From Desulfobacteraceae bacterium (GTDB lineage: Bacteria; Desulfobacterota; Desulfobacteria; Desulfobacterales; Desulfosalsimonadaceae): 47,294 nt of DNA. The stretch's first letter is position 1; every line of letters begins with the position of its first letter. A model generated the notes under the pieces. The model made no database searches, had not been told where the DNA came from, and saw nothing but the letters and a program-made list of their open reading frames with translations. The position numbers and the translations under genes are program-made. The DNA lies in assembly GCA_027858815.1 (NCBI GenBank), contig JAQIBZ010000214.1:1-47294 (forward strand), given 5' to 3'. Shown one piece after another: positions 22,204-40,815 of the stretch.

Positions 22204-24252
22204 CTAATCCATAATCGCCTTCAACAGAGCATCTTTAACATCTGAGTAAAACTGAATATCGATTTTGGTGGCCATGTCATCAGATAGGTCAAACAGTTGT
22301 TTACGGCATGAAACCGGCATTAACAATGCCATAGCGCCTTTTTCAACTGCAATCTCAGTAATGTTTACGGCACTATGAATCGGTTCAATGGAGCCGCCCA
22401 GATTGACTTCTCCGCAAATGATTAATCCGCCGCGAATTGATTTTTTTAACAGGGCTGTACAAAGAGCGATTAATGCGGCAACGCCAATTTTCGACCCTAA
22501 TTTTGACGCATCAAATGCCCTTAACTGTACTGTAAATTCATGGTGGCGCGGGTCTTTATCCCCTACAAGTTGAGTCGATCGGGTATAAAGATTCTGTTCC
22601 GCGTATCCCATGCTTTCGCGAAAGGCCACCGGAATCGGCTTGTTCAGGATTTTAACACCGGAACCAGGTCCTTCATTGATTTCAAGGCGATAAAGGCCGG
22701 GATTATCCTCCAAGCCACCCGGGCTTATGGTCCAAACCTGCCCAGGTTCTAACGGATCTCCGCCAATACTGTTTTCGCTATGCAGTTCCGGCGTGGAAAC
22801 AAATTTTTCGACACCATCAGCCCCCAATACATAGCTGAAATGCGTATTACGAAATTCGGCCGCCCCGATGCGCTTTTGCTGTTCTTTTACTCGCCTTCTG
22901 GCTTCAAGGGCAATCCGCACTGCCCATTCAAGATCCTCTTCCGGAACTGTATTCTCATCGCCCGGATAGAGTAATTTTAATAATCCACTAATGGTTTTAT
23001 TAACAGCATTGGTGTCGCGCCCGCTGAGTGCGCCGCCAAAGAATACCCTGTTTTGGATATGCGATACCCTGCTTTGATTACGCAACTGGCTCCAGCATTC
23101 GGATATAAAATCGCTCACCAATCCAAAATGATCAGTGAGCATTTCTTTTTGTATTTTGGGAACATCCCATCCCGGAAGATATGCATGAATTCGATCCATA
23201 AAGGCGGTGTCATCTCTCATCTCTGGCGGCATTGGTCCGAAAAGGTGGCCAATACGTTGCTGATGCTCAACATCTACTTCGAAATTGCCGACAAGAACGA
23301 TACTGCCATCGGCTCGGATGCTGTCCTTGCCCCTGCTGAATTCGCCCGATTCCATATATCCCTTCATGATGTTGACGCCATCTTTTTGATCAAAGGATAT
23401 ACCGGATATTTCGTCAAAACAGACCACATCATATTGGCAAACCAGGCCGCGCTGGCCGGTTCCCATATGAACAAACATCCTTGCAACTGATGCTTTTCCA
23501 CCGGAAATCAGATGGGCATAGGGAGAGACCTGCTGAAATAAGTGGCTTTTGCCCGTACCCCGGGGGCCGAGTTCAACGATATTATAGTTTCGCTCGACAA
23601 ACGGCACCATCCGCAAAAGAAAGGCATTTTTCTGGCGTTCATCCAGCGTTTCAGGTTCAATACCAATACTCCGAAGTAAAAAAGATTTCCATTCATCTGT
23701 TGTAAACTTATCTCTTGCTTCAGCCAGCGTATCCAGAACCTCTCTTTTCGAGAGTTGAATTTCTCTTAAGTTTGCAATGCCAAAGGGATGGCCCTTGGTT
23801 TCCTGGGAAATTGCCGGATCATAGGTAAGTGTAATTTCGGAATAAAAACCGCCAGTCAGCATTCTTTCATGCCTATTGACAAGATCTCCACTGATTCGGA
23901 CATCCGTCAGTCTTAAACTCGGTAAAGTGGCAATGTATGAATCTGTTCTCGCATCCAGGCGGGCAGTAATCAGATCAATTATTTTAACTTCGCCATTCTC
24001 CCGCGCTTTTGCTTTAAAAAGCTCTTCTTCTCCCGCTTTGACACTTCGTGATTTTAGTTGTCGCTGGACAATTTCCAGGCCCTCTTCAATCTCTTCCTGA
24101 TCAATACTGGCGCAATATCGCCCCAACAGAAACTCAACCACATACGTCGGAACCGGAAACTGACGGCTGAAGGTTCTCACAAGGTCTTTACGGACCAGAT
24201 ATCCATCCAAAGACGATGCTGCGAGTTTATCAATATGATCCAATTCGATCAT
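22204..24252 (-). CDS. brxL: BREX Lon-like protease BrxL
   Basis: 682 aa. N-terminus LDGYLVRKDLVRTFSRQFPVPTYVVEFLLGRYCAS is typical of BrxL. It has an AAA-like core (ELGPRGTGKSH) and a Lon protease-like C-terminus. The ATG overlaps the pglZ stop (ATGA). Confidence 0.85.
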   Translation of the reverse strand: MIELDHIDKLAASSLDGYLVRKDLVRTFSRQFPVPTYVVEFLLGRYCASIDQEEIEEGLEIVQRQLKSRSVKAGEEELFKAKARENGEVKIIDLITARLDARTDSYIATLPSLRLTDVRISGDLVNRHERMLTGGFYSEITLTYDPAISQETKGHPFGIANLREIQLSKREVLDTLAEARDKFTTDEWKSFLLRSIGIEPETLDERQKNAFLLRMVPFVERNYNIVELGPRGTGKSHLFQQVSPYAHLISGGKASVARMFVHMGTGQRGLVCQYDVVCFDEISGISFDQKDGVNIMKGYMESGEFSRGKDSIRADGSIVLVGNFEVDVEHQQRIGHLFGPMPPEMRDDTAFMDRIHAYLPGWDVPKIQKEMLTDHFGLVSDFISECWSQLRNQSRVSHIQNRVFFGGALSGRDTNAVNKTISGLLKLLYPGDENTVPEEDLEWAVRIALEARRRVKEQQKRIGAAEFRNTHFSYVLGADGVEKFVSTPELHSENSIGGDPLEPGQVWTISPGGLEDNPGLYRLEINEGPGSGVKILNKPIPVAFRESMGYAEQNLYTRSTQLVGDKDPRHHEFTVQLRAFDASKLGSKIGVAALIALCTALLKKSIRGGLIICGEVNLGGSIEPIHSAVNITEIAVEKGAMALLMPVSCRKQLFDLSDDMATKIDIQFYSDVKDALLKAIMD

Positions 24253-26597
24253 TTATCACCTCCACCAATCAATGTGACAACCTGAGCCACAAGTTCATTG
24301 TTTTGGTCAATCACCACAATAGTCGCTTCACTTCCTTCCAGTTCTTCATTTTCAACCAGTACAGAGGCGATCCCATCTTTTTTAAAAGATTTCAGATTGT
24401 CAATGATGCTTGAGGCGCTATTTCCAGGCTGCTGCCGGATATCCAGCGATAACCATTCAATGTCCCCTTCCACGGCAACACGGCACCGCATTCCTTTCCA
24501 TTGCACATCGGCAATTTTTATTAGATCCGCTGCTTTCATTGACTTCCCGGGAAGAGCAATTAACTCCAGTGTCAGGCATTCCTGAAAGCTCAGACCGCCA
24601 TGGGAATATTCCAGTCCGTTACGGAAACAACTCACTCCATGGGCTATGGCAATTTGCTGATTTGGATTCCAATACCATGGGTAAAGATTTTCCTGGATCA
24701 CTGCGCCAGATTTTATGATTGCACATCGTCCCCACTTATTATCGGTGAGGGCGCTTGGAAGTTCATCTTTGGGCAACCCGCCGGGGACCAAAAGCCAACC
24801 GTGATCCGTTACCACACGCACGCGCTTCCATCCGGCATCCAGCAACCGGAGAATGCGGTCCTGTATTTCATTTAAATAGCCGTCGATATACTTCGATAAT
24901 TTCCACCCTTTTTCATGGCCTTCATGGTCAATATTGCCGAATTCGGTCCACCCTCGCGCCTGCTTATCTCCAACGCTTTTAGAATCAATGACTTCCCAGC
25001 CCGAATCTTTCAGCAATTTTTTAAAGTGATATCCGCCTTTAAGGGATTGCCCGGCGTCCTTGTCGTTGGGTTCAAAATCAACGCTGGTTTCCAGGCCGCG
25101 TATCTGCATTTTAACCGGTGACACAGCGGGTTTTCCGGTGGCGGTGATACTGGGAAGTGCGGCCCATACCGGTTTTTCACTCACCTGGCATCCGGCATGA
25201 TCCAGTTTTTCAGATAACCGTTTGGCCACATCAAATCGAAGACCATCAACAAACAAAATACATTCGCCTGCTGAATAGGACGACAATTTGGATTTTTCAA
25301 GTGGTCCCCCGGGATAACCATACTGATCTGCTATTTTCTGCAGATACCGTGCGGCTTCTTCCGCCCATGGCAGATATACGGCCCGAATGGCAGCAAAAAC
25401 CGCATCCGCGTCATCATTGTCTGAAACCAACAAAAGGGCCTGCATAACTGCTTCATCGGCACGCCATCCGGAATTTACATACCCCGCGGAAATGTCATCC
25501 ATAGTACCTGCGGTTAAGCTGTCCCCGGTTATTCGTGCCAGAACCGCCAAATGTGCCAGCGCCCGAGCAAGCGGGGCCTGTCCCAGTTCCGCCCAAACCA
25601 GTTTGCGTCTGTCCGCGTGTTTTTTTTCAAGATCCAGAAGCTGCTTGCGGGCTTTATGGTCCGGAAAAGTTTCAAGGCGCTTCAGGTCATTGCGAAGACG
25701 GGTTTCCGCACTTTCATTCCATTGGGGCCATGCGCCGTGGGACTCGGCATTTGAAAACAAATCCACTGGCGGCAGGGCACATTTTTTGATCTGGCCGGGG
25801 ATATTCGGATATTTGTGCGGCGCCTCGCAGAACCGTTCCCAGGCGCCATGCCAGGGACCTTCATGTCTGGCAAGTTTTTCAACGCCGATCAGGGCGCCGT
25901 CATTTTCCAGGTGAAATGCAAATTGTGATTTGCAGACACTCACAAATGCCGTGAATTCATTTTCACCCCGTCCGGAACGGAATGCATCCCCCTGGTCCAG
26001 CCATTGCAGTAGATCCCGAACCGGGTCACCACTGGTTAACAAGGTATTAAAATAATCCTTGTCCAGATGTTTGCCTTTTAAAAAGTCAACGGGTTCATCC
26101 ATCAGCGGATACAAGCCCAGCAGCATGGCATTTTTGGTGTCATTATCCCGGGCCACATCCAGCCCCAATCCGCCCTGATCGGACTTCAAAAACGCCATGA
26201 CCGTCCAGTCCTTTGCATTGACCTGGGACCATATCACCCCGCGATATTGCAATTCCGCCAGGGGTTTTAAATAATCCGGGCAGCTTTCAACAGCCCGGAG
26301 GTCCTGACGGCCCACGCCCGGCAAATATAAGATGGGCGGATTCTCCCGCGCAATGTCAAACCTTTCCACTTTACCGGCAATCACGCACCGCAGCCAGATC
26401 GCCGGTCCTTTTTGATTGTCCGGTGCGTATTCGCCCAGGACAAACAGTTCCGGCAGTTCATTTTGCAGATAAGGGATTATCGCTTCCCATTGCCGGTCCC
26501 GATCCGGCCAAAGGATACAGGCAGGTGCTGACTGGACTTCGGGATTAAAAACAGCGGCGTCACGGACAGCTTTCAGGAGATGATCAAGCACCCTCAT
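24249..26597 (-). CDS. pglZ: BREX alkaline-phosphatase-superfamily protein PglZ
   Basis: About 780 aa with ACILWPDRDRQWE N-terminus and a PglZ domain (ILFVDGLRFD, VTDHGW). The ATG at 26597 overlaps the stop of the upstream gene (ATGA); the track ORF starts at 26615. Confidence 0.85.
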   Translation of the reverse strand: MRVLDHLLKAVRDAAVFNPEVQSAPACILWPDRDRQWEAIIPYLQNELPELFVLGEYAPDNQKGPAIWLRCVIAGKVERFDIARENPPILYLPGVGRQDLRAVESCPDYLKPLAELQYRGVIWSQVNAKDWTVMAFLKSDQGGLGLDVARDNDTKNAMLLGLYPLMDEPVDFLKGKHLDKDYFNTLLTSGDPVRDLLQWLDQGDAFRSGRGENEFTAFVSVCKSQFAFHLENDGALIGVEKLARHEGPWHGAWERFCEAPHKYPNIPGQIKKCALPPVDLFSNAESHGAWPQWNESAETRLRNDLKRLETFPDHKARKQLLDLEKKHADRRKLVWAELGQAPLARALAHLAVLARITGDSLTAGTMDDISAGYVNSGWRADEAVMQALLLVSDNDDADAVFAAIRAVYLPWAEEAARYLQKIADQYGYPGGPLEKSKLSSYSAGECILFVDGLRFDVAKRLSEKLDHAGCQVSEKPVWAALPSITATGKPAVSPVKMQIRGLETSVDFEPNDKDAGQSLKGGYHFKKLLKDSGWEVIDSKSVGDKQARGWTEFGNIDHEGHEKGWKLSKYIDGYLNEIQDRILRLLDAGWKRVRVVTDHGWLLVPGGLPKDELPSALTDNKWGRCAIIKSGAVIQENLYPWYWNPNQQIAIAHGVSCFRNGLEYSHGGLSFQECLTLELIALPGKSMKAADLIKIADVQWKGMRCRVAVEGDIEWLSLDIRQQPGNSASSIIDNLKSFKKDGIASVLVENEELEGSEATIVVIDQNNELVAQVVTLIGGGDK

Positions 26598-28123
26598 TTT
26601 TGTCCGACCTCCCATCGCCCTTGCTTCCGCGACCCGATACGGTGCAAAATTCCGGCTTTCTTGAGTTTCTGAATATGCCGTTTGATGGTCGAGGCGCTTA
26701 CCCCCACCTTTTCCGCCAATTGAAGATAATCGCTTTGCGGATCTTTCCGGATGGCAGTTATAAGGTCAGCATGGATTTTTAAAAGGTCATTTATCGGGTC
26801 ACCCTGACCTTTTATGTGACCTTTTACCCTTTGTTTTTCCGCGATATCACCTGTGGCTTGTGGGCTTAAAGGTCTATTTATAAGTTCAAACTGACCTTTT
26901 ACCTGTTGAATGGTGGTTTGCAAATAATCATCCGTGACCTTAAAAATCGGTTCCACTCCCACCGCCTTCAACGCCGGCACAACCTTGGTTCGCACCCCCA
27001 TGCCTCGGGCGTCCACATACCCATAATCCCTCAGCACTTCCACAATGATATGATTCCTGGCCGAACGTTGACCGGCAAGCATTTTATCAATGGTCATGGC
27101 ATTGGGCAGTGCGCCGGGGCTGATAATTTCAAGGCGGTTTTTATATCCGACGATTTCAACATCCACAAATCGGGACCAATCCCGGTGGGCCAGGGCATTA
27201 ACCAATAATTCCCGAAGGGCTTCGTAGGGATAAAACCAGATTTTTTCCCGCCGGAAATTTTCGTCAATGCTGTCGGGTTCCAAGGTCACAAAAGGTTCCA
27301 TTGTTTCCAGGGTTTTTTCGATCAAGCCAGCGTCGATGAGTGTTTTTCCGGCTTTTCCCACCTGAAACCGTCCCACCAAAGGGGCATCTATCACTTTGTC
27401 CAGCCGAGCCTGATATTCTTTGTCCAGCGAGTCAAAAAACATGAGTCTGACGCCGGAATGTTTCAATGTCTGCCGGGGTTTGACGCCAAACAGCACCAGT
27501 CCGGCGATGGTGCAAACCGGTGCATCCGCAACGCTGTCCGTCATAAACCCCAAAGCTTTCAGTCGGTCAATCCAGGCATTTCTTTCACCAGGCACTTCCG
27601 GGTCCCGCAGAATATCTCGCAGATAGTTCTCCAACCGGGCCATATCCAGAGAATCAATGGACGTGCGGTTTACCGGCATAATTTCCGGGTGCACCGCACC
27701 GGAAGCCGCACCAAGCATTAAAAGTTGTTCCCGGGAGGCCGGCCGGGTCACACTGCCGATCCGTACATAGGCTGTTTCCCGGTCATTGGCCCTTACCACA
27801 TAGGGTTTGAAGATTTCGGGGCCGATGGTGATCACGGCCACCCGACGGCCCTCCCCCATGGCGACTTCTTCGTAATAGGGCAGAATCTGCGGATGCACAT
27901 ACCGGCCAAATACCGTATCCGCCACCCATTCGCTTAAGTTCTTGCGAAAAATGCCCGAGATGGTTCCGTCATCTTCCACGCCCAAAAGAATGCGGCCGCC
28001 TTTGAGATTGGCAAGGGCCACAATTTCCCTGGCCAACTGCTCGGGCCGGATGTCATCCCGCTTGAATTCAACGCCGGAATTCTCGCCATTGGCTATCAGG
28101 TCAAAAATGTCTTGTTTTTTCAT
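26594..28123 (-). CDS. AlbA_2 / Schlafen-like divergent-AAA protein with HATPase_c_4-like middle and C-terminal wHTH
   Basis: N-terminus IANGENSGVEFKRDDIRPEQLAREIVALANLKGGRILLGVEDDGTISG (AlbA_2-type). Middle is EALRELLVNALAHRDWS...LEIISPGALP. C-terminus is LQLAEKVGVSASTIKRHIQKLKKAGIL. AGGAGC RBS upstream. Confidence 0.7.
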   Translation of the reverse strand: MKKQDIFDLIANGENSGVEFKRDDIRPEQLAREIVALANLKGGRILLGVEDDGTISGIFRKNLSEWVADTVFGRYVHPQILPYYEEVAMGEGRRVAVITIGPEIFKPYVVRANDRETAYVRIGSVTRPASREQLLMLGAASGAVHPEIMPVNRTSIDSLDMARLENYLRDILRDPEVPGERNAWIDRLKALGFMTDSVADAPVCTIAGLVLFGVKPRQTLKHSGVRLMFFDSLDKEYQARLDKVIDAPLVGRFQVGKAGKTLIDAGLIEKTLETMEPFVTLEPDSIDENFRREKIWFYPYEALRELLVNALAHRDWSRFVDVEIVGYKNRLEIISPGALPNAMTIDKMLAGQRSARNHIIVEVLRDYGYVDARGMGVRTKVVPALKAVGVEPIFKVTDDYLQTTIQQVKGQFELINRPLSPQATGDIAEKQRVKGHIKGQGDPINDLLKIHADLITAIRKDPQSDYLQLAEKVGVSASTIKRHIQKLKKAGILHRIGSRKQGRWEVGQK

Positions 28124-28172
28124 TGAGCTCCTCTTGTCGACGACAAAAGATAGAAGAGAGACGCATAACGAA

Positions 28173-29186
28173 TCATAAGGTCTTCTCCATCATTTCCACT
28201 AATGCCATTTCCAGGCGTTCATCTTCTTCATCCTGCAGGCTGAGATAGAGAGAAAAATGGTCCACGCGATTGTTTTTTACAAACAATGCCGGGTCATACC
28301 GCCACAACTCTATGCGGCAAGTACCTGTGTCTTCAACAGGAATCTGCTCAACCCGGTCCGCGAGCTTTTTCCAGTCACGGCGGCCCAATGCATAGACCGG
28401 TTCATTCGGCGGAACCAGCATACTCAGGTCCGCAAGTGCGATTTCGCCCGCTTTCATCCGCTGATCTGGCGGCAGATGATCCTCCTTTATACGGAGTATT
28501 TTACGCACCGGGGTACGCAAATACGGCAGGGCTTCCTGCCACAAGGTGCGTCCGTCAGTGGGAAAATCAAGCAACCGTTCACGGCCTTCACGGGTTATTT
28601 GACCCAAACCGCTTCCTTCGATCTCATCCAGCGCCCGTGTCATAGACATTCCGGCATAACCCAGTTTGCCGGCCAATTCCTTGGGGGTGGTCGGTGTTTT
28701 TATCCCGCCATTGAGCGCATAAATCAGAACCGCCTGGGTCGCCGGTGTGAACGTTTCCGTTTTAGCCGGTGCCCTTGCTGTTTTTCGGGCTTGCGCAGCA
28801 ACCCCCAATTCCGGCCAATACAACTGTTGTCCGGGTATCACAAAAGGAATATGCCGTTCGATCAAACGGCGACGGGTGTATCCCGGCAACTCCTGAGCAA
28901 TCAGGCAGAAATCATCAAAAGCATCATTTGCCATGATCTGGCGCAGGTGTTTTTCAAATGCGGCGGGACGAAAGTTTTCGATATCTTTGATCATGATTCC
29001 CAGGAAAGCCCGTTTACCAACAGTGAGTTTCCGCAACGCATATTGTTGATTCAAGTAGTGAGGCAATGGTCTGGATACAGCTTTGCCCCAGGTGACAGGC
29101 ATGCCGGCCAGCTTAGTGATGTATTCAATAAATCGATGTGCTAAATTTTCCATGAGATATAATAACTTTTTTTTGTACAATAACAT
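28173..29186 (-). CDS. Hypothetical protein with central winged-helix motif (unassigned family)
   Basis: 326-337 aa with TPKELAGKLGYAGMSMTRALDEIEGSGLG as an HTH-like segment. The start is uncertain (29186 or ATG 29153). The long antisense ORF 28257..29144 has an implausible R/C/Q/F-rich composition. Confidence 0.55.
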   Translation of the reverse strand: MLLYKKKLLYLMENLAHRFIEYITKLAGMPVTWGKAVSRPLPHYLNQQYALRKLTVGKRAFLGIMIKDIENFRPAAFEKHLRQIMANDAFDDFCLIAQELPGYTRRRLIERHIPFVIPGQQLYWPELGVAAQARKTARAPAKTETFTPATQAVLIYALNGGIKTPTTPKELAGKLGYAGMSMTRALDEIEGSGLGQITREGRERLLDFPTDGRTLWQEALPYLRTPVRKILRIKEDHLPPDQRMKAGEIALADLSMLVPPNEPVYALGRRDWKKLADRVEQIPVEDTGTCRIELWRYDPALFVKNNRVDHFSLYLSLQDEEDERLEMALVEMMEKTL

Positions 29187-29215
29187 TTAAAAAGTTACTA
29201 TGCAAAATAAATGTT

Positions 29216-29240
29216 TCTAAGTTGTTAAAAACAACTTAGA
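29216..29240. promoter_or_regulatory. Perfect palindrome TCTAAGTTGTT-AAA-AACAACTTAGA
   Basis: 11-bp arms read directly, about 30-60 nt upstream of the wHTH gene start candidates. Confidence 0.5.
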
Positions 29241-29256
29241 TGGCCGGATTTTAAAT

Positions 29257-29281
29257 AGTTAATTGCGATCGGCAATTAACT
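29257..29281. promoter_or_regulatory. Perfect palindrome AGTTAATTGC-GATCG-GCAATTAACT
   Basis: 10-bp arms read directly, in the same intergenic region. Confidence 0.5.
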
Positions 29282-29305
29282 TAAAGCATAAACATGCAAC
29301 ATCTT

Positions 29306-29633
29306 TTAGAGTTTGAATAAGCGCATGGCCTGATCCACCAGTTTGGTGGTACGGGCGTCAATCCTGGCCTCGTTCCAATCTGTTTCGGAAGCCAAGTCCC
29401 CATTTGGTTTCAGTCCATTCTTATAACCAATCCCCCGGACCGATGCGTTTTTCCGGTGCTTAGTCGCCAAGGGCCAGGAGTTCAGACAACTCGGCCTGCA
29501 GGCCTGGTATCACTGCTTCAAACTGTCAGTCGCGGTCCGGCCAAAGTATGCATGCCGGTGCTACTTGAATTTCCGGGTTATAAATGGCAGCACTCCGGAT
29601 CGCTTCCGTTAATATTTCATTCACCAATGTCAT
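29306..29633 (-). pseudogene. Decayed N-terminal remnant of a second pglZ fused to an unidentifiable C-terminal fragment
   Basis: Minus-strand translation from ATG 29633 gives MTLVNEILTEAIRSAAIYNPEIQVAPACILWPDRD*QFEAVIPGLQAELSELLALGD*APEKRIGP. It aligns with the intact PglZ N-terminus (MRVLDHLLKAVRDAAVFNPEVQSAPACILWPDRDRQWEAIIPYLQNELPELFVLGEYAPDNQKGP). The two in-frame stops fall where R and Y are expected. The rest, in another frame, reads GIGYKNGLKPNGDLASETDWNEARIDARTTKLVDQAMRLFKL* and ends at 29306. Confidence 0.75.
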
Positions 29634-34400: not shown

Positions 34401-35576
34401 ACGATCACCGTCAAAATGTTTTAACGCATTTTCAACGATCGTTTTATATTCAGCGTGTTTGAGCAAACATTCGCCATAACCCTGATCGAGCCATTTTTGG
34501 ATACGGTTGGAAAATTTTTCATAGAACTCTTTTTTTGTTTTTTCATCGTGAGGTTCAGGATGCTGTTTTAGCCACTCGTCTTTTTCAGTTTGCCATGATT
34601 TCAGCTTTTCCTGTGGGAGAGAATCGGAGGTTCGGAAAGTGACAAAGTAGGTAACGCCTTCCTGTCTCCAATGAGGAAGATTTCCTGAAAGGTTGGCTAT
34701 CTCTTCGTCTTTATGGAAATAGTCGATTTCTTTCAAGCGGCTGGAAGCCGCTTCTACTTTCACAAACCGAAGGTATTCCAAAGGCACACCAGGAAGGGAT
34801 GCTTTTTGACGAAGTTCTTCTTCTGTTTGTGCATTTTTCAGATCAGCTTCACTTAAGCGCCTTGCCGCCCACCAGGCCCCCAAAGAATTATCCAAAAGAA
34901 AAGACACCATATAGGGTTCTGTAAAAAGCTGGGTCACCGCCGGGAGTTCCCGGGCGCCGATCTTTACTTCTGATGCGTTGACCTCTTCCTTCTTCTTGGC
35001 CTGCCAGAACTGATATACCCAGCCCAAGGAATCAGAAGCAGTAAAAACATCTACTGATAAATCGGCTATGAGGCGCTCCAACCTTTGCTGGTGTTCCGGC
35101 GGTAGTGTGAGTTGAAACACTGGTGAATCGATCCGGAAAATCTGGGGCAACATGCGCGCGGCATATTTTGCTGCCAGTTCCCACCCATTTTTGGCACCTT
35201 CATCATGGGCCAGATCTTCACAATCCTGAAGGGTAACAGGGACCGGATCATCCGGGTCCGGATACATGAGCAGGTTGTTTTCTGCTAAAAATCGAGCAAA
35301 TAGCATGCGGTGCCAGTGCTCATAAGCCACTTCTTCAATGAGCCTCTCAATCTCTTGAACTTGAGTATCACCGTTGCGATTATCACCCAACTGACGGCCA
35401 TGGGCACGCAATTGAACCCTCAGTTTCCGATCATCTTCAGTAAGATGTGAAAATGGCTTGGCCTCGCCCACGCCAAGTTGATTTAAGGATGCATTGGCCG
35501 CTTCCTCGGCGATGTCCCGGGCGTCCTTGACAGTACGTTCCAGTTTGTTTCGGAGTGCTTTTTCCAGTGGCTGCAT
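31401..35576 (-). CDS. pglX: BREX N6-adenine DNA methyltransferase PglX, 1391 aa, with in-frame RAYT and REP insertions
   Basis: PglX-type N-terminus with motif I LDPCCGSGHFLV and motif IV MITNVPY. GAGG RBS lies 5 nt upstream of ATG 35576. The ORF is uninterrupted despite the insertions listed separately. Confidence 0.85.
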   Translation of the reverse strand: MQPLEKALRNKLERTVKDARDIAEEAANASLNQLGVGEAKPFSHLTEDDRKLRVQLRAHGRQLGDNRNGDTQVQEIERLIEEVAYEHWHRMLFARFLAENNLLMYPDPDDPVPVTLQDCEDLAHDEGAKNGWELAAKYAARMLPQIFRIDSPVFQLTLPPEHQQRLERLIADLSVDVFTASDSLGWVYQFWQAKKKEEVNASEVKIGARELPAVTQLFTEPYMVSFLLDNSLGAWWAARRLSEADLKNAQTEEELRQKASLPGVPLEYLRFVKVEAASSRLKEIDYFHKDEEIANLSGNLPHWRQEGVTYFVTFRTSDSLPQEKLKSWQTEKDEWLKQHPEPHDEKTKKEFYEKFSNRIQKWLDQGYGECLLKHAEYKTIVENALKHFDGDRYDLDDFVVMPNHIHVLVTPKGGHDLSGILHSWKSFTANEINKAARRSGVFWQKESFDHIVRNPAQLEKIRLYIRGHSACKRSGSGSDFQSLDKKRQDAASTIWQPAAGTFGGWPKYLSELKTLDPCCGSGHFLVAAFLMLVPMRIELEDLTVREAVDAVLRENIHGLEIDKRCVELAAFALAIEAWKYPDSGGYRQLPEMNVACSGLSVSVPRSEWEKLANGDSKLRLALVGLYEEFKYAPVLGSLIDPMRTAVAKLVQWDGLATAVETVLQKDRAFEEREIGVTAQGLAKAAQILAGKYYWMITNVPYLKRGKQGETLRKFSEKHYPKSKNDLATVFLDRCLELSKKGGSTSIVLPQNWLFLTSYKKFREKLLKNDTWHLIARLGSGAFETISGEVVKAILISLSRGEEVAMSPRSGYFYGLDVSEPYNAEEKATGLLTSEIKGVEQAKQLDNPDARVVFDDLSNEVLLANVADYGKGSTTGDCPRFLMNFWEFPKVADTHVYWLNSPNGLSPWSGRGQVCKVPLDDVELNSQLGCRLHGQNVFNRKGVVVNKMKKLEPFLYSGSAFDDNVCPICPTNNSAIPVIWAYVESSDFHDNVRAVDQSLKVTAATITKVPFDLDHWTKVAEEKYPNGLPKPYSDDPTQWIFHGHPSGSVIWDEEKKRLEVASTLRTDATVLQVAVACLLGYRWPAELESGSGFQPLENKRQDGASTMELSDESRAWVEQTRELLPFADEDGIVCISPLRGESSAADRLINLLAAVWESGRGFQPLDKKRQDAASTATFQNWLGQLLKNSDHVGKTLDTWLRDKFFIQHCKLFHHRPFIWHIWDGMHDGFAALVNYHKLDYKNLETLIYTYLGDWITRQKQDIANGIDGAQEKLAAAESLKKKLELILEGEAPYDIFVRWKPIEKQPMGWNPDLNDGVRLNIRPFMSVPDLGKRGAGCLRDKPNIHWKKDRGKDVKSAPWYHLGPQYGGNKGDRINDHHLRLAEKSAAREAGS
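32056..32107 (-). repeat. REP copy A (52 nt, two hairpins plus closing stem) inside pglX
   Basis: GTGGAAGCGGCATCCTGCCGCTTTTTATCAAGAGGCTGGAAGCCTCTTCCAC, translated in frame as SGRGFQPLDKKRQDAAST. Confidence 0.85.
32263..32314 (-). repeat. REP copy B inside pglX
   Basis: GTGGAAGCGCCATCCTGGCGCTTGTTTTCAAGCGGCTGGAAGCCGCTTCCAC. Both stems differ from copy A by compensatory changes. Translated as SGSGFQPLENKRQDGAST. Confidence 0.85.
34099..34150 (-). repeat. REP copy C inside pglX, directly downstream (gene sense) of the RAYT domain
   Basis: GTGGAAGCGGCATCCTGCCGCTTTTTATCAAGCGACTGGAAGTCGCTTCCAC, translated as GSDFQSLDKKRQDAAST. Confidence 0.85.
34173..34679 (-). mobile_element. REP-associated tyrosine transposase (RAYT, IS200/IS605-like HUH-Y1) domain read in frame within pglX
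   Basis: LPHWRQEGVTYFVTFRTSDSLP...DDFVVMPNHIHVLVTP (HUH)...SWKSFTANEINK...VFWQKESFDHIVRN...RLYIRGH (candidate catalytic Tyr). No own ATG or RBS is visible. Confidence 0.75.
34731..34757 (-). repeat. Half REP (second hairpin only) upstream (gene sense) of the RAYT domain
   Basis: TTTCAAGCGGCTGGAAGCCGCTTCTAC matches the right half of copy B with 1 difference. It is read in a different frame, as VEAASSRLK. Confidence 0.75.
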
Positions 35577-36038
35577 AACACCTCAGAGTTGCCGGGAAAG
35601 AATCCCGGCCTACGATGACGAATTCTTTTTTGGTAGGTCGGGATTTCATTCCCGACATTGATCTGCATTAAAATTTACGTTTTTATTGCAACATTCATTG
35701 CGCGTGAGCATTAAAATGCGCATTTAATGGCTTTTTAATGATGGATTCACATTAAATGTCACATTAAACCAATTTTAATGTGATCGGGAATGTGAATTCA
35801 CATTCGGTTCATCAAATGGTCCGAAACCATTTTGCGGGCCATTTAAAAAAAATTGGCCCTACATCGGCCCGGGTGCAATTATCGGTGCACTTTCATGGAT
35901 ATTTGCACATTTTAAGAGTTGGTCAAATGGTACAAATCCATTCTTGAACCATTGTTTGATTAAAATGGACCAAAAAATGGCGCAATACCATTGCGGGTAA
36001 TCCGACCCCCTTTCCGGGCGGTTCGCATAACGCAGCTC
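35577..36038 (-). promoter_or_regulatory. 460-nt non-coding region between brxC and pglX, dense in palindromic operator-like sites; probable internal promoter/regulatory region
   Basis: No ORF of 60 aa or more. Three AAATGG-N7-CCATT sites (35814-35832, 35925-35942, 35975-35992). Perfect palindromes at 35759-35783 and 35788-35805 share TCACATT half-sites. Hairpins lie just upstream of the pglX RBS. Confidence 0.6.
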
Positions 36039-39000
36039 CTATTTAATCGCAATCGGTCCCTGATTCAAGGCAGACCTGAGCAGTTGTCCTGTTTCCTTGA
36101 TCCATGCGTCAATATCATCATCTGTTTTAAGGGTTCGCCGGGGAACTTTGACGAATTTAACTTCCGGCTCCATTAAAACGGCGGCGGCTTCAATGACTTT
36201 GTCAAACCGGGAGGACATGGCCGCCACCCGATCAATTAACATAGGCAACGGGAATTTTCGTAATGTGACCAGTACATCATTTGTGGTCTGTACATTTATC
36301 TCCGGTTTTGTTTTTTCCGTCAGCATTTGTTCTGACAGGAGATGATTGCGTTGCTCCGGTTCCAGTTGTTTCCAGTTGTCATCTTCTCTTAACCGGTTCA
36401 TACCGTTTTCGTGATTTTTCTGATATTGCGCGTCCAGATCATTTAGCGCGTCGCGCAGGGTCTGGGTCACATTTAAGATCAAGGGCGACACCGGGTCCGG
36501 ATCGGACAGCAACAGGCGCTGTTCTTCAACTTTGGCCACCTGGGCGGAATAGACGTCCCCATCTTTTAATTCCCGGGCCTGGGTAAGCAGCGCTTTGAGG
36601 GTTTCCCATGCCGGGAGGCGTTTTTCAATGCGGTCTGCCAAATCTTTCCATTGATCAATGGCCCGGAAAAATTCATCGCGCTGGGTATAAATCGCCAGTA
36701 ACTGTTCGTTGCCGGCCAGCAGGCGGATTTCATTTAATGCGGACGTATCCGGCAAAACGGGTTTGGGCGCATCACCCCCGGCACACGATGCCAGATTCAA
36801 CAGTTTATCAATAAATTGCGGGGCCATGATGAGTTCTTCCCCGGATTTGGCCTGGCAGCCGATTTTTTGCATGACTTTACGGATCTGAATGCGCTGGGCC
36901 GTTGTCACGGTGGTCGCCTCAATTTTATACAGGGCTTTTCCCATGGCTTTGCGTTCCAGCTCACGCGGATCAACGGGCTTGCCATGATCGTCCGCGGCGC
37001 GAATCAGGCCGGCCACCAGAAGCACCTGCAGCCCGCCGTCCACCGCATCCCGGGACCACCCAAAGGGCGGGGTTTCAAAGTGCTGACGGAGTTCCGCCCC
37101 TTTTTTCCCGCTGCCGATAGCACCCATAATGGCTTTACACACCGGGTTATTGGAAGCTTCATCGTCAAAACCCACTGCTTTTAAAGCATCTGGTGCACCT
37201 TTCTTAGCATTTGAATAGACTTTGTCCCATCCTTTATGGTCTGATATTTGAAATTGATCATAAAGGCGAATTAAGGCATTTTTTGCAGCTTCAAGGACCA
37301 TTTCTTGTAAGTTGTTTCCAATGATTTCATTGCCACCACCCTGAAAAACACGGGCACCTGAAAACGCTTCTCCCAAAAGTTCATTTATTTTTGCTTCTGC
37401 ACTCTGACGGGTAGTTTTCATTGCAGAACGTGCTTCCTGGCCTTCCGGAGTATTGGGCACCCCTCGAATTTCCAGAGTGGAATGAGCTGCTTTATAAACA
37501 AGCAAATTGTGCCTGAGATCATCCGCAGAACGTCTGGGTATATAGACAAACACCGTTGGCGAGTGATTCCCAGCCTGCCGGGCATCTGCGAGAACTGTAT
37601 TTTCAGGGTCACGCCAACCGTCTCTGATCCAGATATAAATTTTCTGAGTGTGATCACTCGGCAATTGTGCGTCAAAAACCGGAAAAATATCGCGACTGAC
37701 AATGGAAGTGCCCTGAGTAAGGGATAATTTTTTGACTAATATTGAAAATCCTGCACGGATGCGATCAACCCGCTCTGCCTCAATACGATGGGCTGTATTT
37801 GCCAATTGACTGCGTTGGTTTTGAAATTCATCATTCCATGCTGCGCTTTCTTCTGTCTGGATGCGGTATTCATCCCCGACTTTCATTAAAAGTTCACATT
37901 TATCAAGTAAAGCAGGAAGTTTGTTTCGCAGGTTGCTACTGCCTACTGAAAGATCATCCACCATTAAATCGGCAATAGAATCGATGGTTGCCTTGATTCC
38001 GATTTCGTTGTTTTTCCCCCCCAACTTATTGATCAGAAAAATAATCCCACATGCACGGGACGTACATCTTTCATCTGCCGTTCCGCTGACCCATTTCATG
38101 GTCTTTTCATGAATTTTTCGTGGCAGGATACGGGATTGGAGCAACTTATCCGCTGAGTCAAAATATAAATAATCCGCCGGCACGACATTTCCTAAGGGCT
38201 CATCCAGATTGCTCTGGATCACTTTATGGATCATGCTGAGCTGATTACGGAGCTGGCTTTCGGTTCCGGTTTGATCCAGCACCCGCAGCGTGTTTTCCCA
38301 AAAGCGTCGGCGGACCGGAAGAATAGGGTAATCCTTTTCAAAACAGGGAATATCATCCTGATGATGGCCGATGGTTGTGCCTGCTAAATGTCTGGAGATT
38401 TCTCCGAGATTCGTTTCCATTTTCTTTTTTATAAGCGGAATGGCTTCAGCGGTTTTGGCTAAAACGACCTTTCGGATGACAGTGTCCACATCAGTATCAG
38501 ACAATTCAATGCGGACCGTAAAACGGCCTTCAAGTTTTTTCAGATTGCGCGTCCCGGTGACGGCAGTTTGTCCGGTCCCCACAAATAAAAGTTTGCCGCC
38601 GATCTGCTTACAGCATGCTTCCACCACTTCCTGAACGGCATTGGAACGCTCAGGGTCTCCCTCTCCGATATATTGCTGCACTTCATCAAGGGCAATGAGC
38701 GATAGGGGGAACTTTCCATCACGAGTCAAGGCATCCCGAATGCTTTTAATCATTTCATCATTGCTGATATCCGAAACATTTGGATACAGACGGGTCATGA
38801 TTTCAACAGCGCTGTTATCTCGAGAAAATACTTTCGGCTTAACTACGCAAAGGGCTTCATATAAGCCTTCGGCAACATGAAAATTGTCAATTTCGGTCTG
38901 CCAGTTATATCCGTTATTTTCAACATGCTTGCAGATTTCATCATAAATGCCTTCTGATTTAAGCCACATGACAAAACGTGCTACCGGGTATTGTTCCGGC

Positions 39001-39482
39001 AGGCCGACTGATTTAAATATGATTCTTATCAATGCCAAACGCACGCTGCCACTGGCACCGGCACCCAATGTGCCGGATGCAGCATGAAGTCCGCCATGTC
39101 TTTTGCCCTGCGTGGATAGTTCTTTGAGAAGTTCTTTGATCGAATTTGGAAGGGTAGCGATTCCGCGAGCGGACGCACCGTCTTCAAATGTGGTATCTGC
39201 CCAGAGAGCACGGAGCATTTTTACAAGATGAGACTTTCCAGAACCAAAAAACCCGCTTACCCAAACACCCGGCTGTTCCGCCTGATCGATATTGCTCGAA
39301 TAAGTTTGGAGAATATGTGCCAATCCTTTTTCATATTGACCATCACAAACAAAGGTATCGAGTTCGTATCGGAGGACTGATTGGGCCTGGGTGGTCATAT
39401 CATCATTGACGTTTGCCACGCCCTGATTAATCAGTTTCTGGGTGGACGGATCTTTTAGATAAATGGCTCTGTTTTTTATCAT
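36039..39482 (-). CDS. brxC: BREX P-loop ATPase BrxC/PglY
   Basis: 1147 aa with Walker A GFFGSGKSHLVKML near residue 80. Size and position between brxB and pglX fit BrxC. Confidence 0.85.
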   Translation of the reverse strand: MIKNRAIYLKDPSTQKLINQGVANVNDDMTTQAQSVLRYELDTFVCDGQYEKGLAHILQTYSSNIDQAEQPGVWVSGFFGSGKSHLVKMLRALWADTTFEDGASARGIATLPNSIKELLKELSTQGKRHGGLHAASGTLGAGASGSVRLALIRIIFKSVGLPEQYPVARFVMWLKSEGIYDEICKHVENNGYNWQTEIDNFHVAEGLYEALCVVKPKVFSRDNSAVEIMTRLYPNVSDISNDEMIKSIRDALTRDGKFPLSLIALDEVQQYIGEGDPERSNAVQEVVEACCKQIGGKLLFVGTGQTAVTGTRNLKKLEGRFTVRIELSDTDVDTVIRKVVLAKTAEAIPLIKKKMETNLGEISRHLAGTTIGHHQDDIPCFEKDYPILPVRRRFWENTLRVLDQTGTESQLRNQLSMIHKVIQSNLDEPLGNVVPADYLYFDSADKLLQSRILPRKIHEKTMKWVSGTADERCTSRACGIIFLINKLGGKNNEIGIKATIDSIADLMVDDLSVGSSNLRNKLPALLDKCELLMKVGDEYRIQTEESAAWNDEFQNQRSQLANTAHRIEAERVDRIRAGFSILVKKLSLTQGTSIVSRDIFPVFDAQLPSDHTQKIYIWIRDGWRDPENTVLADARQAGNHSPTVFVYIPRRSADDLRHNLLVYKAAHSTLEIRGVPNTPEGQEARSAMKTTRQSAEAKINELLGEAFSGARVFQGGGNEIIGNNLQEMVLEAAKNALIRLYDQFQISDHKGWDKVYSNAKKGAPDALKAVGFDDEASNNPVCKAIMGAIGSGKKGAELRQHFETPPFGWSRDAVDGGLQVLLVAGLIRAADDHGKPVDPRELERKAMGKALYKIEATTVTTAQRIQIRKVMQKIGCQAKSGEELIMAPQFIDKLLNLASCAGGDAPKPVLPDTSALNEIRLLAGNEQLLAIYTQRDEFFRAIDQWKDLADRIEKRLPAWETLKALLTQARELKDGDVYSAQVAKVEEQRLLLSDPDPVSPLILNVTQTLRDALNDLDAQYQKNHENGMNRLREDDNWKQLEPEQRNHLLSEQMLTEKTKPEINVQTTNDVLVTLRKFPLPMLIDRVAAMSSRFDKVIEAAAVLMEPEVKFVKVPRRTLKTDDDIDAWIKETGQLLRSALNQGPIAIK

Positions 39483-39488
39483 TTTTCC

Positions 39489-40040
39489 TTAGTACTCCTT
39501 ATCCGCTGTTATCGGTACGGCCAGATAATTCCAGCCATCATAGCCATCAAGTAATCTGTAATTATTGTTTTCATAGCTGCCTGGAAAAAAGACGACTAAT
39601 TTACCTTCGACCAAAGGGGCCAGTTGATCGACCACGTCTTTGACTTTTAAAAATCCAAAAAGAGACCCAACACCTTTTACAGCAACGACTGTATTGGCAT
39701 CTGCTTTGTTTTCCATTAAAAATTCTTCAAACTGATTTGTAATGAATGCCATATAACCCGGCAGGTGCGTTGAAAGAAGTTCGGGGTTTTTAAAATAACT
39801 TTTTGCATAGGGTTCATTAGAAAGCCAATTTGCAAAGGAATCGGTTAAATCAAAAACATGCCAGTTGTGCCCGGCTGCTTTTGTCACGAGCTCAAATTCT
39901 TCGATTCTTGCCCTGAGTTTTAATTCGTCATTTTCATTATAAACACAGAAAATTACCCGCTGCATCGGTGCCGCATCACTTCTCCAGGGTATGGAGATAA
40001 ATTTGTTATATGACTGTATCAACCGTTTAATTTTGCTCAC
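39489..40040 (-). CDS. brxB: BREX protein BrxB (DUF1788)
   Basis: 183 aa with ISIPWRSDAAPMQRVIFCVYNENDELKLRARIEEFELVTKAAGHNWHVFDLTDSFANWL, the DUF1788 pattern as I remember it. It overlaps the brxA end by 14 nt. Confidence 0.8.
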   Translation of the reverse strand: MSKIKRLIQSYNKFISIPWRSDAAPMQRVIFCVYNENDELKLRARIEEFELVTKAAGHNWHVFDLTDSFANWLSNEPYAKSYFKNPELLSTHLPGYMAFITNQFEEFLMENKADANTVVAVKGVGSLFGFLKVKDVVDQLAPLVEGKLVVFFPGSYENNNYRLLDGYDGWNYLAVPITADKEY

Positions 40041-40815
40041 GTATCCAATCCATTTCCTGAGTGGTTAATAGGCTGGGAAACAACAATTCCATTACATTGC
40101 CGATGCGTTTAAACACGATCCATCCTTTTTGGGATGCGATTTCCGCCAGTTCAATGGTTCGATGTGATGGACAGTCAAGCAGGCGAGTATATTCTGAATT
40201 GAATAAAGATTCACCGCGCAACCCGGAGAGATAACCTAAAAGTAAAGCATAGGCTGCTGCGCCTGGCGTTGGAATCGCCTTTGTGCGTATTTTCTTAACC
40301 TTCCCGGTGAGATGGCCGGATTTGGTAAATGATGAATTGATATTCTGGGCAACAGATTTAAGCGTTGCTTTGCTGAAACGATCAGATTCTTTGTCGTCTA
40401 TGAATTCTTCCAATGCTTCCCGGCGGATTATGTTGCCTTCCGAAAAATTCAAAATAAAAGGCGTACTGGAACTTAAAATAGAATCCCTTGCGTAAGCACA
40501 GAGCAGTGCAATCAAAGGTCGCCCTCCTTTATCCCGTTGCCAGAAAAACCGGAGAACCCGGAACAGGGCAATTGAAGGATCTAATGCATATAAGTCTGCC
40601 AAATGCCGCGCAGTTAATTGCCTTGTTCTGACGGATCTCTTTTTCAGGCAGTTATCGTTTATGATTGAGGAAAAATATTCGTCTTTCGAAGCCGCTGGAT
40701 CGGCAACTGCATCAAAAAGCAGATCCAAGTCTTCCAGCATGATCGTGCGAGATGAGTGCGCGCCTCCCTTTGAGAAGCTAAAACCGAATTTTGATAAAAG
40801 TTCTTCTTTTTTCAC
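40027..40815 (-). CDS. brxA: BREX protein BrxA (DUF1819-like)
   Basis: 262 aa, first gene of the operon directly upstream of brxB. The assignment rests mainly on position and size; sequence recognition is weaker. Confidence 0.65.
   Translation of the reverse strand: MKKEELLSKFGFSFSKGGAHSSRTIMLEDLDLLFDAVADPAASKDEYFSSIINDNCLKKRSVRTRQLTARHLADLYALDPSIALFRVLRFFWQRDKGGRPLIALLCAYARDSILSSSTPFILNFSEGNIIRREALEEFIDDKESDRFSKATLKSVAQNINSSFTKSGHLTGKVKKIRTKAIPTPGAAAYALLLGYLSGLRGESLFNSEYTRLLDCPSHRTIELAEIASQKGWIVFKRIGNVMELLFPSLLTTQEMDWIREQN

Follow-up and report, generated by a model that had tools for sequence, protein, structure and literature searches.

In-frame REPIN-RAYT element within pglX of a mosaic type 1 BREX operon from a Desulfobacteraceae bacterium

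We analyzed a 47,294-nucleotide (nt) stretch of DNA from a Desulfobacteraceae bacterium (the window; contig JAQIBZ010000214.1 of assembly GCA_027858815.1) that carries a type 1 bacteriophage exclusion (BREX) operon. We found that a REPIN-RAYT element has entered pglX, the methyltransferase gene of this operon, in frame. It comprises a complete HUH/Y1 domain of the repetitive extragenic palindrome (REP)-associated tyrosine transposase (RAYT) type, together with REP hairpins, several of them arranged as inverted doublets (REPINs). To judge from its genes, the region is a complete chromosomal type 1 BREX operon, and the account we think likely is that of a type 1 BREX operon with second-layer cargo and with a selfish in-frame REPIN-RAYT passenger in pglX. 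The arrangement is a variant of two known systems, type 1 BREX and REPIN-RAYT, while the occurrence of an in-frame RAYT and REPs in pglX is apparently undescribed. In the literature we found no paper that reports an in-frame RAYT within a host protein or that joins RAYT with BREX or PglX in any relevant manner, and a 2026 survey of BREX loci (PMC12839542) makes no mention of transposase, HUH, IS200, or DUF559. The whole account was built from sequence. Trees were neighbor-joining trees on distance matrices, and related loci (L-numbers; homologous proteins have P-numbers) were seen as stretches of at most 24 kb. L001 and L002 are other metagenome assemblies of the same locus.

In the window, PglX has 1391 amino acids (aa) compared with ~1130 to 1200 aa in insert-free relatives. 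An earlier note on this stretch had overlooked that the gene is ~230 aa too long. The features within pglX are the following.

31401 to 35576, minus strand: pglX, N6-adenine methyltransferase and specificity subunit, 1391 aa (PADLOC PglX, 1717 bits in two stretches)
34089 to 34766, minus strand: in-frame insert in pglX, ~225 aa (aa 271 to 496), with a RAYT domain at aa ~296 to 470 (Pfam Y1_Tnp, 30.8 bits; cutoff, 23)
34735 to 34757, minus strand: REP monomer, a GTAG-tagged hairpin on the 5' side of the RAYT, encoding VEAASSRL (pattern search; single-stranded DNA [ssDNA] fold, z = -4.7)
34098 to 34152, unstranded: REPIN (inverted REP doublet) on the 3' side of the RAYT, encoding GSDFQSLDKKRQDAAST (repeat family D1; ssDNA fold, z = -5.7)
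32392 to 32414, plus strand: decayed REP monomer in pglX, in frame, KKRLEVAST (REP pattern matched with three mismatches; ssDNA fold, z = -4.5)
32262 to 32316, unstranded: REPIN in the PglX C-terminal domain, in frame, GSGFQPLENKRQDGAST (ssDNA fold, z = -7.4)
32055 to 32109, unstranded: REPIN in the PglX C-terminal domain, in frame, GRGFQPLDKKRQDAAST (ssDNA fold, z = -5.65)

Two alignments locate the insert. The match to the PADLOC PglX profile is split in two, the best piece beginning at residue 490 (profile position 272), and the alignment with Escherichia coli BrxX bounds the break, with residues 238 to 511 of the query corresponding to BrxX 266 to 306. When placed by the domain limits published for BrxX/PglX (PMC11842806), the loop anchors of the insert, residues 271 and 496, lie early in the methyltransferase domain, just before motif I. 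This loop measures 8 to 13 aa in most insert-free homologues and up to 46 aa in a few. Like the solved BrxX/PglX structures, of which it matches 8zek, 9ewz, and 8c45, the window PglX has alignable N-terminal, methyltransferase, target recognition (TRD), and C-terminal domains; it is a distant relative of the solved proteins and aligns with them in pieces (E about 1e-40). Pfam recovers Eco57I, N6_Mtase, and MmeI_Mtase domains, and the catalytic motifs, motif I (DPCCGSGHF) and NVPY, are present.

The inserted segment matches RAYTs in profile, motif, and fold. Against the NCBIfam model REP_Tyr_transpos it scored 55.2 bits (E = 6.7e-15; model positions 29 to 127 of 146), which is under the 80-bit equivalog cutoff, and the predicted RAYT belongs to a lineage that is distant from the E. 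coli type. The HUH motif is HIH at aa 404 to 406, within HIHVL (404 to 408), and the catalytic tyrosine is Tyr464. The HUH histidines are conserved in 23/23 embedded and 120/120 free RAYT copies, and the tyrosine is conserved wherever it could be aligned. An AlphaFold2 (AF2) model of the insert had a mean confidence (pLDDT) of 83, and its best Foldseek match in the PDB was TnpA-REP (4ER8_A; E = 1.2e-5) at a modest TM-score of 0.51 on the target, followed by the TnpA proteins of IS608 and ISDra2. With its HUH motif and tyrosine, its Y1 fold, its flanking GTAG/GTGG hairpins, and its inverted doublets, the element resembles known REPIN-RAYT systems (E. coli TnpA-REP 4ER8, Pseudomonas REPINs; PMC3733652). 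It differs from them in that the RAYT is an internal, in-frame domain of a host protein and not a free-standing gene, that the REPs of the loci seen keep to the host gene or operon and are not spread across intergenic DNA, and that the host gene is a mobile defense gene.

The RAYT lies inside the pglX frame and has no start or stop codon of its own; thus, it is produced within the PglX polypeptide. Among the Pfam matches to PglX there was no Hint or intein family, and the junctions (FVK/VEAAS and AAST/IWQ, with the slash at the joint) lack the usual Cys/Ser and His-Asn. Because Pfam found no Hint/intein domain, we do not expect protein splicing.

All REP copies in pglX are in frame, and the peptides that they encode are VEAASSRL and G(S/R)GFQPLxxKRQDAAST. 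The 23-nt monomer is free of stop codons in 5/6 frames when it has the GTAG tag and in 6/6 when it has the GTGG tag, and in-frame copies survive selection because the monomer is nearly stop-free in all frames. The stems carry compensatory variants (GCGGC/GCCGC, GCGAC/GTCGC, GAGGC/GCCTC, and GCGCC/GGCGC), and the doublets form strong folds as ssDNA. All eight monomers in the window (47 kb) are within pglX; by chance, none would be expected. When the window (8 monomers) is taken together with L003 (9), L004 (5), L171 (4), and L172 (9), 33 of the 35 monomers fall in ~21 kb of pglX, 2 in ~61 kb of other BREX DNA, and none in ~62 kb of flanks, these kilobase totals being sums of gene coordinates. 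In L171 a REPIN (16201 to 16253) is intergenic, between the cargo and pglZ. A sixth locus, L045, has a REPIN (5381 to 5431) between brxB and brxC, in a gap of ~130 nt compared with 6 nt in the window. Outside these loci, the monomer is common in bacteria of the Planctomycetes-Verrucomicrobia-Chlamydiae (PVC) group, in Hydrogenedentota, and in some Desulfobacterota (at least 120 stretches in our scan). In PVC bacteria (L052, L061, L083, and L117) it occurs in frame in glycosidases, CobN, a Mg-chelatase subunit, and PabB, with peptides that include SGSGVPPL and KRQDAAST. Intragenic REPs of the GTAG type have been documented (PMC3733652).

Since this is a metagenome contig and the REP copies are repeats, the long pglX open reading frame (ORF) might have been an assembly chimera. 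We give this next to no probability: two other samples hold the same pglX without a difference, and the architecture recurs in 22 further homologues from independent projects.

We then examined how widely the insert is distributed. A RAYT is present at the same loop in 23 of the best 120 PglX homologues (54 to 70% identical, mostly from Desulfobacterota metagenome-assembled genomes), and most PglX proteins in the clade have no insert in this loop. An unrelated element, DUF559/MTES_1575, occupies the same loop, also in frame, in 5/120 homologues (P0031, P0039, P0053, P0073, and P0106). In L127 the DUF559-type pglX (992 to 4843) has its element between 29-nt inverted repeats (1810 to 1838 and 2196 to 2224) that encode PSPSGRGAGGEG and PLPEGEGL; the inverted repeats of the DUF559 element were checked at the DNA level in this one locus. 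P0046 carries a diverged embedded RAYT with a different set of repeat peptides, as would be expected if RAYT and REP coevolve. In the plasmid collection we found no PglX-RAYT and one distant free transposase. The full-length PglX-RAYT proteins P0003, P0004, P0010, and P0024 are labeled "transposase" or "RayT" by NCBI/JGI.

The RAYT lineage reaches well beyond BREX. A HMMER scan with the insert returned 8266 relatives, 781 of them at E <= 1e-30, and 51 of the best 150 representatives (about one-third, by listed lengths) are proteins of at least 500 aa in which the RAYT is internal. We scanned 19 of these long hosts with Pfam. Seven are Eco57I/MmeI/N6-type methyltransferases with the RAYT at differing sites, and two are leucyl-tRNA synthetases (LeuRS) with the RAYT at the same site in both. 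RecG, PriA, a DinG-like helicase, HypF, adenosine deaminase, and a B12-radical-SAM protein are represented once each. Another (P0422) is an ADH plus GFO/IDH/MocA oxidoreductase ORF that may be two adjacent genes bridged by the element, and the remaining three gave Y1_Tnp only, as did six other longer RAYT ORFs. Hosts with an in-frame RAYT include P0390, P0392, P0407, P0417, P0431, P0456, P0458, P0479, and P0480. An HsdR host, to which the JGI name "type I restriction enzyme R subunit" would point, was rejected as unsupported: for P0121, the one ORF of this name that was scanned, Pfam gave only Y1_Tnp.

Because the same lineage sits in LeuRS, HypF, and other nondefense proteins, the RAYT is most likely a selfish passenger on a frequently transferred, selected defense gene and not a working part of BREX. 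The competing idea is that BREX has co-opted it, either as an ssDNA nickase for the restriction of phage DNA or as a recombinase that uses REPINs to swap TRD cassettes. It draws on the conservation of the HUH motif and tyrosine in all embedded copies, on an architecture that persists across PglX proteins only 54 to 70% identical to each other, and on the placement of a second nuclease-type domain, DUF559, at the same loop of other PglX proteins. However, most PglX proteins in the clade do without an insert, both the RAYT and the DUF559 elements carry terminal hairpins typical of mobile DNA, and LeuRS, HypF, adenosine deaminase, RecG, and PriA, which host the same lineage in frame, leave no room for a BREX-type role. 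That Eco57I/MmeI-type methyltransferases are 7 of the 19 long hosts would also suit co-option, as would the REPs that bracket the TRD in several homologues, where the TRD shuffles independently of the backbone, and the window TRD, which is closer to that of a RAYT-free protein than to those of its backbone relatives. Yet TRD shuffling is equal in RAYT-free PglX proteins, and when the TRD was compared alone, the nearest neighbor was RAYT positive in 4/23 cases, the chance level; the TRDs thus shuffle independently of the insert. We regard co-option as decidedly unlikely, and the version in which the HUH/Y1 domain is active in the BREX complex as nickase or TRD-swapping recombinase, with the DUF559 nuclease as a parallel solution, as improbable.

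The TRD of the window pglX (32337 to 33179) is 77% identical to that of the RAYT-free P0013 and 45 to 50% identical to those of P0002 and P0003, the two proteins whose N- and C-terminal domains are closest to the window PglX (80 to 84%); pglX is therefore itself a mosaic. Our first tree had pointed to full polyphyly of the RAYT-bearing PglX proteins. We no longer hold this reading, which was partly an effect of TRD shuffling: once the TRD was removed, partial clustering appeared, with a RAYT-bearing nearest neighbor for 13/23 RAYT-bearing PglX proteins compared with 4.3 expected.

As an insertion, the element resembles the ShiLan element of phage methylases (PMC11855218), inteins, and the Rickettsia palindromic elements, in that a stop-free sequence has entered a tolerated loop of a DNA methyltransferase. 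Like ShiLan-type insertions, it codes for a protein of the nuclease type and is found repeatedly at a single site in diverged hosts. Unlike ShiLan, whose HNH gene is out of frame, the RAYT is in the frame of its host, and unlike both inteins and ShiLan, the element encodes an HUH transposase that has hairpin substrates of its own.

The usual picture of a RAYT is that of a free-standing gene, single copy and immobile. In the present case, an entire RAYT forms a domain inside a host protein, and it recurs at one PglX loop in many diverged BREX loci. This suggests a route by which a nonautonomous REPIN-RAYT could gain expression, resistance to deletion, and movement between genomes by way of a transferable defense gene. 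It also places a nuclease-type domain inside the DNA-recognizing subunit of BREX. The loop upstream of motif I tolerates inserts of 140 to 340 aa, which may be useful for engineering. Finally, "transposase" names on PglX-RAYT proteins hide BREX systems, and such loci have likely been missed or mislabeled.

The operon around pglX has all six type 1 genes, brxA, brxB, brxC, pglX, pglZ, and brxL, as intact minus-strand ORFs between 22204 and 40815, each with a full-length match to a BREX profile. The core genes other than pglX are as follows.

40027 to 40815, minus strand: brxA, 262 aa (PADLOC BrxA, 355.6 bits over residues 2 to 259; no Pfam or NCBIfam match)
39489 to 40040, minus strand: brxB, 183 aa (Pfam BrxB, 35.7 bits, cutoff 26.8; PADLOC, 274.5 bits)
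36039 to 39482, minus strand: brxC, P-loop ATPase, 1147 aa (NCBIfam BREX_BrxC [NF033441], 913 bits, cutoff 400; PADLOC, 1609 bits)
24249 to 26615, minus strand: pglZ, type B (NCBIfam BREX_PglZ_1_B, 935.7 bits, cutoff 400; PADLOC PglZ, 1059 bits)
22204 to 24252, minus strand: brxL, Lon-like ATPase/protease, 682 aa (Pfam BrxL_ATPase, 441.6 bits, and BrxL_N, 145.6 bits; PADLOC BrxL, 995 bits)

Against NCBIfam, BrxL scored 450.5 bits with TIGR02688 (cutoff, 329.3) and 622.4 bits with TIGR02653, slightly under the cutoff of 628.25. The earlier note had read all six genes as open on the minus strand, and the PADLOC, NCBIfam, and Pfam profiles recovered them; the failure of profile searches that it named as grounds for rejection did not materialize, as PADLOC matched all six BREX proteins. 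The translational couplings that it had described were likewise borne out, since all five ATGA overlaps can be read in the sequence: pglX to the ATPase gene that follows it, this ATPase gene to the DUF4276 gene, DUF4276 to a pglZ stub, an AlbA_2 gene to pglZ, and pglZ to brxL. For pglZ the overlap depends on a probable start at Met7 (26597). The note had also reported finding no WYL-type regulator, and indeed we found no WYL (BrxR) gene among the 30 window ORFs scanned with Pfam and none among the small ORFs upstream of brxA, where no ORF was supported. L003 and L171 have a 68-aa HTH_17 gene upstream of brxA; the window has no HTH_17 gene there.

The locus thus shares with the type 1 BREX systems of E. 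coli HS, Salmonella D23580, and Acinetobacter the same six genes, their order, and their single strand. It departs from typical type 1 BREX in having no BrxR/WYL or HTH_17 gene, a 462-nt spacer between brxC and pglX, 4.8 kb of cargo, and a RAYT with REPINs in PglX. In L001 and L002 the locus is ~99.8% identical to the window, with few variants, none of them disabling. What looks like a "split" of pglZ in L001 reflects an N-run scaffold gap and no frameshift. L001 also has an in-frame 21-nt deletion in brxL (23052 to 23072) that lies between short direct repeats and shortens the protein from 682 to 675 aa.

Between pglX and pglZ the operon carries additional genes. The four extra ORFs and pglZ remnant that had been claimed for 26594 to 31404 were all found. 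The description of this segment as 4.8 kb of foreign genes holds for the presence of the genes; we would recast "foreign" as accessory defense modules at a recurrent cargo junction. The features are listed in the direction of the operon.

30292 to 31404, minus strand: HEC-01A, an OLD/AAA_21-type ABC ATPase, 370 aa (Pfam AAA_21, 104.7 bits; PADLOC HEC-01A, 488 bits, E = 4.1e-147)
29630 to 30295, minus strand: HEC-01B, a DUF4276 protein (Pfam DUF4276, 188.8 bits; PADLOC HEC-01B, 278.8 bits, E = 9e-84)
29424 to 29633, minus strand: pseudogene stub of the pglZ 5' end, ~70 codons with two in-frame stops (tblastn, 39/63 [62%] to residues 13 to 75 of the resident PglZ)
29216 to 29279, minus strand: palindromes and a sigma-70-like site upstream of orf7 (palindrome with an 11-bp stem at 29240 to 29216; promoter-like site at 29275 to 29248)
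28173 to 29186, minus strand: orf7, a 337-aa ORF, ~326 aa from its probable start (Met12, 29153), with a central MarR/ArsR-type winged helix-turn-helix (wHTH)
26594 to 28123, minus strand: Schlafen/AlbA_2-HATPase_c_4-wHTH protein, 509 aa (Pfam SLFN_AlbA_2, 67.4 bits; HATPase_c_4, 55.7 bits; HTH_24, 37.2 bits)

The first module has the layout of the PADLOC candidate system HEC-01, with HEC-01A and HEC-01B adjacent, cooriented, and ATGA coupled. The DUF4276 ORF spans 29630 to 30331, and its probable start, 30295, is taken from the overlap at 30295 to 30292. Like PARIS, which pairs the AriA ATPase with the TOPRIM protein AriB, the module is a two-gene operon with an AAA_21/OLD ATPase and adjoins an Ocr-sensitive PglX. 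The ATPase matches PADLOC AriA at 92.2 bits, far below its score as HEC-01A. Unlike PARIS, its best match is the candidate HEC-01A/B, and the partner is a DUF4276 protein: the Pfam and PADLOC scans gave no AriB (DUF4435 TOPRIM) match for it. Since the partner is not AriB/DUF4435, the pair is by these profiles PARIS-like and not PARIS, and sensing of anti-restriction proteins would be by analogy. DUF4276 has been listed among the partners of AAA15/21 defense ATPases (PMC11464382), and the protein here is presumed to be a nuclease effector.

In the second module, the AlbA_2-HATPase-wHTH protein is a candidate effector or sensor; the same architecture is found inside the BREX loci L004 and L172 and that of P0027. 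The gene before it, orf7, had no Pfam, PADLOC, or NCBIfam match at default thresholds. Its family has 209 homologues of ~327 aa, some of them named MarR-type regulators by the source databases. The AF2 model (pLDDT, 88.7) matches solved MarR/ArsR folds over its central ~75 residues only, and on this model orf7 is a candidate regulator. The segment from 29216 to 29279 is possibly orf7's own promoter/operator, with counts of promoter sites there no higher than chance; an analogous 25-nt palindrome is upstream of the orf7 homologue in L127. Promoter and terminator scans were at chance level (28 versus 30.1 and 30 versus 26.0) and were not used as evidence. An orf7 homologue is located between pglX and pglZ in the Syntrophales loci L127 to L129. 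The family is usually paired with an overlapping gene of 253 to 256 aa without a known domain (L125, 6001 to 7742; L127, 6001 to 7751), and in the window the AlbA_2 gene stands in the place of this partner. In Desulfosudis oleivorans the two-gene unit adjoins lexA, imuB-like, and dnaE2-like genes.

The two modules are separated by the pglZ stub, which directly follows DUF4276 and is 54 to 63% identical to four full-length PglZ N termini (those of L004, L172, L127, and the window). As it is about equidistant from all of these, no donor lineage could be named. Third-position G+C (GC3) is 0.50 to 0.56 in orf7, the AlbA_2 gene, and pglZ and 0.44 to 0.47 in brxL, pglX, and brxC. The proposal of a mosaic of two operon modules is supported on both counts: the diverged, stop-containing stub after DUF4276 and the rise in GC3 over orf7-AlbA_2-pglZ would fit a replacement of the original pglZ. 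The simplest reading is that the operon once had the order pglX-HEC-01A-HEC-01B-pglZ and that an orf7-AlbA_2-pglZ segment from another BREX lineage recombined into it, truncating the old pglZ.

The junction between pglX and pglZ is a recurrent cargo site in this BREX clade, and in all six related loci examined its cargo differs from that of the window. It holds an AAA_21 ATPase with two small ORFs in L003, AlbA_2 with PDC-M07A/B in L004, an AAA_21 ATPase with a 198-aa ORF in L171, and AlbA_2 in L172 and the P0027 locus, the latter known from gene calls only. L127 to L129, from Syntrophales, with a DUF559-type pglX, have DUF932, the orf7 homologue, and a 256-aa ORF.

A BREX layout with embedded cargo is an ordinary, already published pattern. 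A Salmonella BREX locus has an embedded PARIS system (PMC11341690), and in at least 1017 taxa the 2026 survey found BREX loci that contain OLD-ABC plus TOPRIM and Schlafen-HK-wHTH proteins (PMC12839542). Like these and BREX-BrxU of pEFER, the window has an ABC-ATPase pair and a Schlafen-type gene in the operon, cooriented and coupled. It differs from the other embedded-system loci in three respects: the partner of the ATPase is DUF4276 and not AriB/DUF4435, two modules are stacked with a pglZ pseudogene stub between them, and a MarR-like gene, from a family without a Pfam model, stands before the Schlafen-type gene. Taken alone, the embedded-module operon is one more example of the surveyed pattern and carries little weight.

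Could the locus instead be a decaying, nonfunctional BREX remnant? The pglZ fragment, the loss of brxC-pglX adjacency to the 462-nt spacer, the PglX score below its NCBIfam cutoff, and the related L171, which has a short pglZ and no called brxL, all speak in this direction. However, none of the six core ORFs is truncated and each matches its profile over the full length, PglX keeps motif I and NVPY, the translational coupling is retained, three assemblies agree at ~99.8% identity with no disabling variant, and the 22 other RAYT-bearing pglX genes are also intact. We find decay very doubtful.

We favor a BREX operon with cargo and a probable selfish passenger. By family membership, PglX would act with BrxB, BrxC, and PglZ to methylate a short motif in host DNA, and the complex with BrxL and BrxA would block the replication of unmethylated phage DNA, as is established for the family. 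HEC-01, coupled to pglX, is probably PARIS-like: its ATPase would sense a phage anti-restriction protein and free the partner nuclease, leading to abortive infection. The orf7 and AlbA_2 proteins, coupled to pglZ-brxL, are probably a regulator or sensor with an RNase-type effector. By analogy with PARIS and bacterial Schlafens, such second-layer modules would trigger abortive infection when BREX is inhibited. The RAYT, translated within PglX, would most likely nick and join REP hairpins on ssDNA. Since the E. coli enzyme, TnpA-REP, works as a monomer, embedding of a copy would be plausible. New REPINs may be seeded mainly in cis, a mode of action that would explain why REPs cluster in pglX and the BREX operon. 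Selection on the host gene would leave only insertions that are in frame, free of stops, and in tolerated loops, which would account for the recurrence of inserts at one loop, including that of the unrelated DUF559 element.

Several points weigh against this account. Methylation, defense, and RAYT activity are all predictions from sequence. PglX scored 339 bits with NCBIfam BREX_1_MTaseX, under the 500-bit cutoff, and its insertions may affect function. Conserved catalytic residues would be expected of an active selfish RAYT and just as much of a co-opted one. The figure of 23/120 is inflated, as the search query itself contains the RAYT, and RAYT-bearing PglX proteins form only partial clusters in the distance trees, compatible with different numbers of insertion events. 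The idea of seeding in cis is based on at most ~24 kb per related locus and 47 kb for the window, and one Desulfoplanes contig (L056) has a REP monomer with no BREX gene in its vicinity. HEC-01 itself is no more than a candidate system, and DUF4276 differs from the AriB domain.

Outside the coding regions, the main features are the spacer within the operon and the two flanks.

35577 to 36038, minus strand: noncoding brxC-pglX spacer, 462 nt, rich in palindromes (RNA fold, z = -4.94; 0/100 shuffles as stable)
21849 to 21925, plus strand: tRNA-Pro(GGG), left neighbor of the operon (ARAGORN; Rfam tRNA, 59.8 bits)
21932 to 21980, unstranded: (TCAG)12.2 microsatellite (TRF, 100% matches)
40816 to 41515, unstranded: AT-rich right spacer, 34% G+C, presumed BREX promoter region (no supported ORF and no HTH_17/WYL gene)

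The spacer, earlier given as 460 nt, measures 462 nt and contains three AAATGG..CCATT units and, clustered within 50 nt, three CATT(W1-3)AATG palindromes. We found in it no supported ORF and no Rfam match, and blastn and tblastx matched it neither to the other BREX loci nor to the remainder of the window. The same junction has 12 to 22 nt in four related loci and 23 nt, by gene calls, in the P0027 locus, and in L172 it is occupied by an AlbA_2 gene (8136 to 9851). The spacer could be an operator/promoter region that splits the operon or the scar of lost cargo. Because no BrxR or HTH_17 gene is present, orf7 and the AlbA_2 wHTH are candidates for binding it.

The earlier note had titled the region a complete but mosaic type 1 BREX island at tRNA-Pro, and in this title "island" is best read as a possibility. 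Its description of the flanks was accurate: tRNA-Pro(GGG) and the TCAG tract, there written (CAGT)12, are on the left, and the AT-rich spacer with a repeated element is on the right. That the 18.6-kb block entered at tRNA-Pro as an integrative genomic island would fit with this adjacency, with AT-rich spacers on both sides, and with the varied neighborhoods of the flanking methyltransferase pair among relatives. Defense loci are commonly mobile. However, as the note itself had reported, the window has no integrase (among 30 Pfam-scanned ORFs, including all 25 nonnested ORFs of at least 100 aa) and no tRNA-derived direct repeat (the tRNA-Pro 3' end, searched as 18 to 30 nt with at most 3 mismatches, has no copy besides the tRNA itself). 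The G+C and codon-usage comparison proposed in the note gave the modest rise over orf7-AlbA_2-pglZ and no compositional signal of an island, with G+C at 47.5% in the locus versus 45.6% in the window and locus GC3 within the range of the flanking genes. We also scanned metagenomes with the flanking methyltransferase. Among 41 loci, the best 82% identical, neighborhoods were not syntenic: the best relative continues with tRNA-Asn, others with metK, and one has tRNA-Pro 7.8 kb away. None was an island-free allele, and at this distance the loci neither set borders nor speak against an island. On the whole, we consider entry as an island unlikely.

The remaining observations concern the surroundings. 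The right flank (41516 to 45554) has two paired S-adenosylmethionine (SAM)-dependent methyltransferase genes, then a PfkB-family kinase gene and metK; the methyltransferase pair is kept in many metagenome loci whose surroundings vary. The Rfam scan of the window returned tRNA only. The TCAG tract, 224 nt past the brxL stop, is two units shorter in L001 and L002, with no evident effect on BREX. A 114-nt element in the right spacer (41218 to 41331) is repeated 6 kb away at 47181 to 47294 with 99% identity. The second copy follows a sigma-54 activator gene and is cut by the end of the window, so the element, which has no Rfam match, may be longer. The first 14 kb of the window hold housekeeping genes, namely, ffh, trmD, rnhB, and rlmN.

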